From the sequence record LR597642: a stretch of 40,019 nt of DNA, one strand, 5' to 3'. This document shows positions 33,001 to 36,000 of the stretch, in pieces. Made by a program: the position numbers. The DNA comes from Escherichia phage Evi. How positions within the stretch are numbered: position 1 is the stretch's first letter; every line of letters begins with the position of its first letter.

Positions 33001-36000
33001 TTGTGAAGCTGTCGGGTTACTTCATCCCGCCAATATTTTCCCACGTCCCGTCAGCACGCAGGATTTGCAGCGGTCTTACCACACACTGTATCTGCTTTTT
33101 ATCCGCATCCAGTATCACCACCTGCGTGATTACCATGTCCTGCTCCGGGATAATGCCATTCTCATCTGACTCCAGAATGTCTGCCGGCCCCAGACGCAGT
33201 TGTGCTGTAAGCGACTGCACGTGTTCACGGCCATCATGCTTTCCGCAACCACACAGACGCTGCATAAGTTTTTTTAGTATATTCATGTCATTCTCCTGTT
33301 CTGCCTGTATCACTGCCCACTTCATCCAGCCCCTTGACATCCTGCCACGGCCCGTCACCAAACCTGACCTGCAAATGCTGAAAAAACCCCTGAACCTGTG
33401 TGGCATCTTTGGGGTCAAGAAAGGTCAGTCCGGTGATGAGCGCACCATCTGTATCCGGGAACCAGCCATTGCTGTTTGTCTCAATAATGCTCGCCGGCCC
33501 CAGACGAAAACGGATTTGTGTCTCCCCCGGGTCGCCCTTCGGTCCCTGAGGTCCGGTTGCCCCCACCGGGCCAGCCGCACCTGTTTCTCCTTTCGGTCCC
33601 TGTGGGCCTGCCGGGCCTGCCGCACCGGTATCTCCCTTTGGACCCTGTGGACCTGCATTTCCCGTCAGACCGGTCTCTCCCCGCTCTCCCCTGTCACCTT
33701 TCGGCCCCTGCGGGCCTGCCGGACCAGCATCACCTGCCGGTCCCCGTTCGCCGGTTGCCCCGACAGGGCCGGTGTCACCGCGCTCTCCCTTATCACCCTT
33801 CGGCCCCTGAGGACCCGCGGGCCCCTGTTCCCCCTTTGGCCCGGGAGGTCCCACCACGGTGGGGATTCGGTTTACGGCCTCTTCCGCCGCTATCCTGCTT
33901 TGTTCCGCTGACTGTGCGCTTTCTGCTGACTCCCGGGCTTTTTCTGTTGCGGTCGTTGCATCCCTGGCTGCATTACCGGCTGCACTTTCTGCCGTCTTTC
34001 TTGACAATTCAGCTTCTGCTGCACTTTGTGATGACTCACTGGCTTTTTGAGCGGCCTCAGAGGCCGAGGACGAGGACGCTTCCTCTGACTGCTTTGCAGA
34101 GACTGCACTTTCTGCCGCCTGCCGGGCTGACTCCGATGCATCCCCTGCTGAAGTGTCAGCATTTGCAGCGCTCTCTTCTGCCTGACTGGCTGATATGCCG
34201 GCATTCCTCGCGGACGTCTCCGCCTCTCCGGCATTCTTCTTCGCCTCCTCTGCGTTACGCACCACCTCTTCCACCATCAGTTCAAAGCGACGCAGTGCCT
34301 CCGGCCGGACGTCATCCTCCGACATGGCACCGAGAAAATCATTCAGCGTACCGGGTCGGGAATCTTCATACACGGTGATGGTCCCGGCATGTGACGGCGG
34401 GAATCCTTCCACCAACAGAATGACGCTGTACTGACCGTACTCAACGTCCATGCTGTAACGACCGGCTTCATCCGGATTTTCAGAGGCCAGCGTGTTCACC
34501 ACCACCGTGGTGCTGTTACGTTTTGCTTTCAGCTGGATTGTGCAGTTCTGTACCGGTTTTCCTGTGCCGTCTTTCAGTACACCTGAAATCTTTACTGCCA
34601 TATTCACCCCACAAAAAATCCCGCCTGAACCGGCGGGCTGTCATAACACTGTGTTACCTGGCTAATCAGAACTTATAACCGACACCCACGATGAACCCGT
34701 CAGTGCGCCAGTCGCCACTGCCGGAGCCTTCATAAGCAATATCAATGGCCACGGATTCGGTCGGGTTAAACTGCACGCCAGCTCCCCACGCCAGAGACGT
34801 GTTGCTGTGGCGACCGTCATCACTTCCGGTCAGCACGTCGTGCGTTTTCCCCTTGTTGTCAGTTACGCGGAGATAATCCCCGGAGAAAGTCGACACACGG
34901 CTGTAAGACACACCCGCCATCGCATACGCGCTGAACCATTCATTCACGCGCACAGACGGCCCCGCCATCACGCTGAACCAGCGGTTACGCACGGAATCTT
35001 CATGCCAGCGGATATCGCTGTAACGGGTAAGCTGGCGATTCTTGTCTCCTGCATAGCTGAATGACGTCACCAGCCCCAGTGTGTCCGTAAACTCATAAAG
35101 GTATTTCACGTTAATCCCGTTCAGATCATCGCTGCCGGGAACGTTCGTCGAGGCATGAAGATACCCCGCGCTCAGCGTGGACTGATGTTCAGATGCCCAT
35201 GCAGACGCACCGGATACGGCCAGACAAATAGCTGCGGACAAAATGGCTGCATAAAGTTTACGCATAATTACCTCTCGCTTTTCTGCAATAAAAAAGGCGT
35301 CATTCCTGACGCCCTTTATTGGGGTTATAAATATTTCAACGAATACTGATACCGGAAGCCGCTTTTTTGGTCACAATCACCGTACAGTCGGTGATATTCC
35401 CTGCCCCCTGATTGCCTTTCTGGAAAATCTTAAACTCCAGAGTGACGCTACCACCACCACTAGGCATATCAATAACTGCACTGTAACTACCGGGAATGGC
35501 CCCTTTAGTTTCTCTGGATGCGATTAATACACCGTTTTTGCGAACTTCAAAACCATAACCCGTGTATCTTGTACCTCCCGGGTTATTACCACTTCCCGGA
35601 TCGCTATACGCTATTCCGTTAAAGATAATGGGCGGAATAATGATTTGACGGTCAAAGTTATGATCATCGCTGATGGTGACTGTAACCGTCCCGTTTGGTG
35701 TTTCCGTATTACCCCACGTACCAGCCTGTTTCGGGAATGATTTGGATACAGCTTTAACGAAGTCACCTCTGACCTGAGTCGCCTCCAGCATGCCCTTAAT
35801 CGTACAGTTTTCATTTACCGTGACATTGTTGAGCGTCCCGGCGTTCGCATTCACTCTGCCACTGATATCCGCATTTTTAGCGGTCAGCTTTCCGTCTGAT
35901 GTCAGGGAAAATACCGGAGGACTGCCACCGCTGGTAATGGTGGGGGCTGTCAGGCGCTTCAGGAACACGTCGTTCATGAATATCTGGTTGCCCTGCGCCA

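Follow-up and report, generated by a model that had tools for sequence, protein, structure and literature searches.

The genome of Escherichia phage Evi (sequence record LR597642; "the window" below is the whole 40,019-nucleotide stretch analysed) carries, directly downstream of the gene for its collagen-like side tail fibre, a small gene of 89 codons whose product is, judging by its sequence, a true paralogue of the fibre's own C-terminal domain. The geometry of their junction couples translation of the small gene to that of the fibre gene. Purifying selection on the small gene is strong, and the detection of its peptides establishes the open reading frame (ORF) as a real, translated late gene. 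The reading we favour, tentatively, is that the small protein is a non-structural accessory partner dedicated to the fibre and located in the slot of a tail fibre assembly (Tfa) gene, being neither a member of the Tfa family nor a decaying remnant. The gene and the domain relationship were already annotated and published. The Prokaryotic Genome Annotation Pipeline and RefSeq name the product "phage tail fiber C-terminal domain-containing protein", and it matches PHROG 576 from end to end (E 7.3e-59, residues 1-89 on profile positions 1-89 of 89). Added here are the signature of purifying selection, the intactness of every copy, the strict co-occurrence with the fibre domain, a second gene pair in Salmonella, trace peptides in virions and a predicted Mu-like fold. 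The features concerned are listed below by their coordinates in the window.

33017..33286, minus strand: small gene, 89 codons, from ORF call and translation (ATG at 33286-33284; stop ending at 33017)
33293..33297, minus strand: Shine-Dalgarno sequence AGGAG of the small gene, in the final codons of the fibre gene, 6 nt 5' of the ATG
33206..33286, minus strand: unique N-terminal 27 residues of the small protein, with a basic amphipathic helix at residues 3-12 and then a variable linker, CGCGKHDGREHVQSLTA
33020..33205, minus strand: PF06820 (Phage_fiber_C, or PfC) domain of the small protein, residues 28-89, predicted to be all-beta
33183..33196, minus strand: 14-nt run CGTCTGGGGCCGGC (codons for RLGPA), identical to 33493-33506 in the fibre gene
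33288..34607, minus strand: collagen-like side tail fibre of EPclA architecture, 439 codons (PF08400 N-terminal domain, coiled coil, collagen repeats, C-terminal PfC)
33324..33515, minus strand: PfC domain of the fibre, residues 365-428, paralogue of the small protein
33291-33323, minus strand: the fibre's 11-residue acidic tail after PfC, with no counterpart in the small protein
32976..33002, minus strand: terminator-like hairpin (12-pair stem and T run), 14 nt past the small-gene stop, also facing a convergent tccP2-like gene

Evidence for the paralogy came from pairwise and profile comparisons. BLASTP aligns residues 29-88 of the small protein with residues 366-427 of the fibre (24 of 62 positions identical, 39%; E = 1e-12), and both proteins match the whole of the 64-position PF06820 model, at 121 bits (121.1) for the small protein and 125 bits for the fibre against a cut-off of 25; the small-protein match (E 2.5e-35) places residues 28-89 on model positions 1-64 of 64. 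These matches bear out the proposal of the initial annotation that the small gene encodes a free-standing copy of the fibre tip, and they show that the similarity is not compositional. That annotation had also aligned the small protein with the last 60 residues of the fibre; the alignment is real, but the fibre continues for a further 11-12 residues (EVGSDTGRTGE). The family name of PF06820 implies the C-terminus of a long tail fibre. The small protein stands alone, with its own start codon and ribosome-binding site (RBS), and PfC nonetheless lies at the C-terminus of the 89-residue product. It had been allowed that the ORF might instead belong to a known Tfa family and resemble the fibre only in composition. 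Pfam searched at E ≤ 1 returned PF06820 alone and NCBIfam returned nothing, so the scans place the small protein in no Tfa family. None of its PHROG matches is annotated as a chaperone, and at E ≤ 1 neither the fibre nor the small protein has a Pfam match to an intramolecular chaperone domain of the Peptidase_S74 type. The longest exact DNA match between the two genes is the 14-nt run listed above.

The junction is arranged as first described, with an 89-codon ORF beginning 1 nt past the fibre stop and an RBS inside the fibre's 3' end; both the coordinates and the AGGAG were confirmed. The fibre gene ends in GGA GAA TGA, and a single C (33287) separates this stop from the small-gene ATG. A TTG-started extension of the small ORF to 133 codons was rejected, since it overlaps the fibre gene and is not the conserved start. 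The survey of relatives that the initial annotation had called for found the same arrangement widely: the junction GGAGAATGACATG is kept in 77 of 79 related loci, and the remaining two have very different upstream sequence, with an IS66 element inserted directly upstream. An identical stop-1 nt-ATG junction occurs in phage 434, VT2-Sakai and phi24B; the VT2-Sakai fibre gene runs to locus position 3499, with the small gene beginning at 3501. Because the hairpin at 32976-33002 directly follows the small gene, the fibre gene and the small gene close one transcription unit, and the phage 434 record annotates a terminator at the matching place 3' of its small gene, as well as the RBS. Another GC hairpin of terminator type, again with a T run, separates lom from the fibre gene (34620-34637, minus strand), matching a terminator annotated there in phage 434; the two hairpins would thus flank the fibre and small genes on both sides.

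Selection on the small gene was assessed in 84 related loci (80 of them from IMG/VR) that together hold 85 copies. The 89-residue ORF is intact in all 85, and the ratio of nonsynonymous to synonymous differences per site (pN/pS; pairwise Nei-Gojobori over 54 distinct alleles) is 0.125. The constraint is uneven along the gene: pN/pS is 0.083 for the PfC part and 0.37 for the N-terminal 28 codons, compared with 0.27 for the fibre's own PfC. These values, together with the intact ORFs, indicate that selection preserves the protein product of the small gene, and does so more stringently than for the fibre tip. That the small PfC is more tightly constrained than the fibre PfC is in keeping with a protein facing a partner from the phage, not a host receptor that varies.

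The small gene is also strictly linked to its partner. When the small protein and the fibre PfC were used as tblastn queries, all 295 phage records had both types, each at at least 80% identity to its query; the records with the small gene include 434, VT1-Sakai, VT2-Sakai, 933W and 2B8. A more distant pair of a fibre PfC and a small PfC was found in a prophage of Salmonella enterica subsp. salamae (locus L086, 3291-5036). Here a 241-residue fibre ending in PF06820 is followed by a 79-residue PF06820 protein that overlaps the fibre end by 14 nt, and the upstream genes are of another tail type (a spike-type N-terminal domain, PF18352, with Baseplate_J and DUF2612). The two-gene cassette therefore spans lambda-type long tails, short tails (Sp5 and phi24B) and a baseplate-type module. 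Between E. coli and Salmonella, the small proteins are 53% identical and the fibre PfC domains 40%, whereas in the L086 pair the small protein is 29% identical to its own fibre. This ordering indicates two old paralogue lineages that have been inherited together, and hence that the duplication is old. A search for co-variation between small-gene and fibre-PfC alleles found the alleles shuffled, and linkage alone could account for the one tight association (TDKKL in the small protein with GN/R/FF in the fibre). Beyond the Salmonella pair, as beyond the E. coli one, lies a convergent ORF; it has the N-terminus MNISSSGINFSTIPTQ, which by eye resembles a type III effector leader and has no Pfam match.

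Wider searches stayed close to E. coli. Among 1.8 billion cluster representatives there were 90 matches, nearly all of them E. coli fragments or frameshifted pieces; the SprB-repeat proteins among them are spurious. A third homology search, with a profile that included remote members, recovered the same close E. coli sequences and nothing further, and a scan of one genome per species yielded only E. albertii and two doubtful contigs. A 725-bp contig assigned to Xanthomonas pisi (L083) carries a 92% identical small gene, and a contig from a 'Clostridiales' metagenome-assembled genome (L084) carries a fibre-type PfC; both look like contamination or mis-binned E. coli phage DNA. In an unrelated metagenome phage fibre (L087, 4884-5924, and P0241, the latter with a PF06820 score of 57.6 bits), PfC-like modules of about 76 residues occur two to four in tandem, 5' of the collagen repeats, so the domain is not confined to fibre C-termini and can stack.

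Evidence that the small gene is translated came from the proteome supplement of a cryo-electron microscopy preprint on phi24B (bioRxiv 10.64898/2026.04.10.717836), in which two peptides unique to the small ORF, VITQVVILDADKK and ADGTWENIGGMK, were reported from gradient-purified virions. Each was represented by 3 spectra, compared with 38 (FGDGPWQDVK) and 47 (GLDEVGSDTGR) for the homologous fibre peptides and 2267 for the whole fibre. Given this disparity, the small protein is not a stoichiometric part of the virion and is present there in at most trace or sub-stoichiometric amounts.

The fold of the small protein was modelled with AlphaFold2. A first attempt on a shallow, E. coli-only alignment gave a predicted local distance difference test (pLDDT) score of 49 and was unusable; adding the Salmonella homologues and the remote PfC-like modules raised the score to 76, for a monomer. 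In this model PfC has six strands at pLDDT 80-91, a helix spans residues 3-12, and residues 14-22 fall below 50; the linker CGCGKHDGREHVQSLTA is probably disordered. The Evi and Salmonella small proteins have in common the motif M-x-I-[LF]-K-K-x3-L-x-G, and the Salmonella protein is without the linker. Two methods gave the phage Mu fibre tip S/S' (PDB 5YVQ and 8JU3) as the best structural match, with 22-28% identity over 53-63 residues; for 5yvq_A, Foldseek gave E 0.044 and 22% identity over 63 columns. Visual inspection finds RLG, G-x-V-[IV]-T-G, RP-[IVL]-Q and [ND]G[TP]W both in PfC and at the C-termini of Mu S and S'; profile comparison, however, was not significant. Among predicted viral structures, the top 12 matches are all predicted viral proteins of 175-727 residues; eight are named, six of these as tail fibre proteins. 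There is thus moderate evidence that PfC adopts a Mu-type fibre tip fold. A tip of this kind is served in Mu by a classical Tfa, the product of the next gene. Searches of the PDB by sequence (small protein) and by profile (PfC alignment) gave only PKN1 and optineurin at E > 0.03, which are not real matches. A lipoprotein or secreted product was rejected, as MNILKKLMQRLCGCG has no hydrophobic signal segment or lipobox, and a CxCxxH metal site was rejected as a defining feature because the Cys and His positions are not kept in the Salmonella homologues.

Under the favoured reading, the small protein would be made together with the fibre, would probably self-trimerise like the fibre PfC, as the homology suggests, and would exert its effect on the C-terminal tip as the fibre folds or afterwards, presumably by contact with that tip, either as an assembly helper or as a transient cap. 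It would not stay on the virion in stoichiometric amounts. The junction geometry, the terminator, the co-occurrence in every record, the Salmonella pair, the low pN/pS and the trace virion peptides all argue for this, as does the lack of a neighbouring Tfa: an ORF map and a Pfam scan found no Tfa-family gene beside the Evi fibre. A precedent for a conserved yet dispensable cognate fibre chaperone across morphotypes is provided by Alteromonas phages A5/V22 (PMC10579305). A more specific and rather doubtful version is that of a client-derived chaperone or cap, in which a free copy of the trimerising tip templates, registers or caps the fibre tip, has replaced a classical Tfa, and travels as part of a mobile cassette across sipho-, podo- and myovirus-type tails.

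Several points weigh against a helper of either kind. To our knowledge, no chaperone is a paralogue of its client's domain. The small protein matches no known chaperone family in Pfam, PHROG or NCBIfam, and the AlphaFold2 model is of a monomer and is silent on complexes. Ghosh et al. (2012; PMC3368898) studied ECs2717, a close homologue of the Evi fibre with the same architecture. In their work the recombinant fibre was a trimer, as was the isolated PfC by size-exclusion chromatography with multi-angle laser light scattering; the fibre and a Col-PfC fragment folded and trimerised in E. coli and refolded rapidly after heating, and PfC nucleated the refolding of the collagen helix. The small protein was absent from all of these experiments and is never mentioned in the paper. 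Mondal et al. (2016; PMC5155283) systematically deleted genes of the Shiga toxin 2 (Stx2) phage Sp5; the fibre gene, ORF67, is essential, and the late genes that they list as non-essential include ORF68, which encodes the 89-residue homologue of the small protein. If there is a helper role, it can therefore be dispensed with in the laboratory. These data argue against a strictly required chaperone. Of the roles that the initial annotation had suggested, that of a tip-derived assembly chaperone still fits best, though as a dispensable helper at most, given the listing of the Sp5 homologue as non-essential and the ability of the recombinant fibre to trimerise alone.

The same gene has been described under several names: Sp5 ORF68, 933W L0122, VT2-Sakai H0138, phi24B 'gp59' and 434 CPT_434_24 all encode 89 residues, are 91-99% identical and follow a PfC-tipped collagen-like fibre gene through the same stop-1 nt-ATG junction. 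In the short-tailed Stx2 phages its partner is the lateral fibre, and in Evi, 434, 2B8 and VT1-Sakai it is a lambda-type side fibre; the small genes show no other difference that is essential. The annotators of phage 434 called the product "tail fiber assembly chaperone"; their record cites no similarity, so the name apparently derives from position alone. There are parallels with the Tfa proteins (lambda Tfa, Mu U and P2 G; Caudo_TAP), which occupy the same slot directly downstream of the fibre and are likewise co-transcribed with it; the client in Evi would moreover be a tip with a predicted Mu-S-like fold. The small protein differs in having no sequence match to the Tfa family, in being half as large and in using a copy of its client's own tip domain as its building block. 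Its order of helix and then beta domain is also the reverse of the Tfa layout, in which an N-terminal fibre-binding beta domain precedes a C-terminal helical trimerisation domain (PMC9608196). Unlike Tfa, the Sp5 homologue is listed as non-essential where the fibre is essential. The EPclA/EPclB fibres (PMC3368898) contain a PfC of the same family, a beta-rich trimerisation module that nucleates the collagen triple helix. Relative to these fibres, the small protein is without a collagen or coiled-coil shaft, an attachment domain or an acidic C-terminal tail, and relative to the fibre PfC it has its own 27-residue N-terminal helix and linker and is only 39% identical. The fibre-chaperone modules of A5/V22, described as 'transient chaperone caps', are similar in that morphologically different phages share a fibre with a cognate small partner, one of which is unneeded for functional fibres (PMC10579305). 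The A5/V22 chaperones resemble intramolecular chaperone domains rather than a fibre tip, and have no sequence relationship to the small protein.

An unlikely alternative is that the small protein is an accessory adhesin or alternative tip, present as a trimer on the virion, for example stacked on the fibre PfC, and conferring a receptor specificity that is needed on natural hosts and not on K-12. The predicted fibre-tip fold, the tandem stacking of PfC-like modules in one fibre (P0241 and L087) and the detection of peptides in gradient-purified phi24B virions are consistent with this, and dispensability on rough K-12 would still be compatible with a role on hosts that bear O-antigen. However, 3 spectra per peptide compared with 38-47 for the fibre, itself at 2267 in total, is far under equimolar. 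The small protein is also more conserved than the fibre tip, both in pN/pS (0.083 and 0.27) and between E. coli and Salmonella (53% and 40% identity), the opposite of what is usual for receptor-binding surfaces. An alternative tip, which the initial annotation had suggested, is thus disfavoured.

Mondal et al. (PMC5155283) proposed that the small gene is an "intragenomic reservoir sequence", a spare tip that can recombine into the fibre gene and vary its C-terminus. The 14-nt identical run at the start of the domain in both copies would offer a site for such exchange, and one natural variant, P0063, has collagen repeats that run straight into a small-type PfC (GATGERGPADILESDENG). P0063 appears to be a deletion within the collagen repeats, joining them to the small gene via short GGGCCGGC-like homology, and DNA identity beyond the 14-nt run is too low for frequent homologous exchange. 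None of 292 proteins was a fibre with a small-type PfC joined through the RLGPA junction, and all 295 records keep the two types distinct, at at least 80% identity to their own type. Against a reservoir, too, the gene retains a start codon, an RBS and an N-terminal segment of its own, is translated, and shows purifying selection at the protein level. What was checked offers the reservoir idea no support, and we consider it improbable.

There is also little reason to think that the small protein is a soluble factor, in which free PfC trimers released at lysis bind a surface or environmental ligand, for instance masking receptors on debris and so sparing progeny phage. Co-expression with the fibre, the tip-type fold, the non-stoichiometric presence in virions and the dispensability in plaque assays would all fit. 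On the other hand, the small protein shares only 39% identity with the fibre tip, so its ligand could be a different one, and masking would block receptors on fresh hosts as well. The protein has no signal peptide, and the tight link to the fibre stop codon suggests a role tied to fibre synthesis.

Less plausible still is a low-frequency fusion, in which ribosomes slipping +1 where the fibre gene stops (GAA UGA C, just after the Shine-Dalgarno-like AGGAG) would produce a minority of fibres with a tandem PfC tip. Judged by coordinates, the small ORF lies +1 to the fibre reading frame in both Evi and the Salmonella prophage. The stop context UGA-C is a weak one, found also at the prfB frameshift site. 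However, the transfer RNA (tRNA) that decodes GAA cannot re-pair on the +1 codon AAU, and AGGAG here overlaps the P-site codon, whereas at prfB it lies 3 nt upstream. The small gene moreover conserves its own ATG and a well-spaced RBS. The peptide ratio of about 1:13 in phi24B would suit a rare fusion, and the phi24B authors included hypothetical fusions in their search database and labelled one row 'Spike or just gp59?', with no discussion in the text. No peptide spanning the fibre-small junction is among the phi24B peptide rows listed, and Mondal et al. (PMC5155283) saw no frameshift signal.

That the gene is a non-functional leftover of an old fibre rearrangement, annotated because its ORF happens to be still open, might be suggested by the many singleton database variants with foreign N-termini or insertion sequences in or near the gene, but this reading, like the remnant of tip exchange suggested initially, is contradicted and effectively refuted by the intact ORF in 85 of 85 copies, the pN/pS of 0.125, the 53% identity of a Salmonella homologue that has kept its fibre partner, and the detected peptides.

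The variants themselves merit description. In locus L035 (1348-3999), and also in L061, an IS66-family element with three ORFs abuts the RBS region of the small gene and replaces the fibre's 3' end, and the 89-residue ORF is still intact. Many singleton database proteins have foreign N-termini joined within the linker of the small protein (around HDGREH), and phage record OP797663 has an IS3 element inside the small gene. These cases point to the small-gene region as a hot spot for insertion and deletion.

As the gene is already known and annotated, the finding adds little in itself. Hundreds of lambdoid phages of pathogenic E. coli, Shiga-toxin-converting ones among them, carry the pair right next to loci that hold type III effector genes such as tccP2, and the range of strains open to these phages probably depends in part on the collagen-like fibres. 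A dedicated helper or cap, if that is what the small protein is, would be a compact alternative to Tfa, with relevance to fibre engineering and to the spread of toxin phages; were it indeed client-derived, it would be a fibre assembly partner of a kind not described before.

The remaining features of the window lie around this unit. The fibre itself matches PF08400 (1.9e-68), Collagen (3.9e-18) and PF06820 (1.9e-36), and its true start is probably an ATG two codons downstream of the listed GTG. Long plus-strand ORFs over the fibre gene (33003-33911 and 33518-34378) were rejected as mirror-strand artefacts of the GC-rich collagen repeats. The neighbouring genes are as follows.

35336-38749, minus strand: J
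34666-35265, minus strand: lom
32279-32890, plus strand: EspF-repeat protein, 203 residues (PF04806, E 4.8e-78), with 2.4 copies of a 141-bp repeat

The EspF-repeat gene is convergent with the small gene, and the hairpin at 32976-33002 is common to both; its best RefSeq matches are to TccP2, a Tir-cytoskeleton coupling effector. The tail-end genes confirmed by Pfam (the J region, lom and the fibre) lie on one strand at the right end of the window (33017-39990, minus strand), and large ORFs on the same strand at its left end (84-12819) would, by size alone, fit head and tail genes. About 1.5 kb from the fibre unit, two plus-strand ORFs (30236-31475) read by eye as an excisionase and an integrase. 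If these by-eye ORF readings hold, the window would be a circular permutation of the phage genome in its vegetative order rather than an integrated prophage. A tRNA cluster called by ARAGORN lies at 16589-16830 on the minus strand (Arg-TCT, Lys-TTT and Met-CAT).

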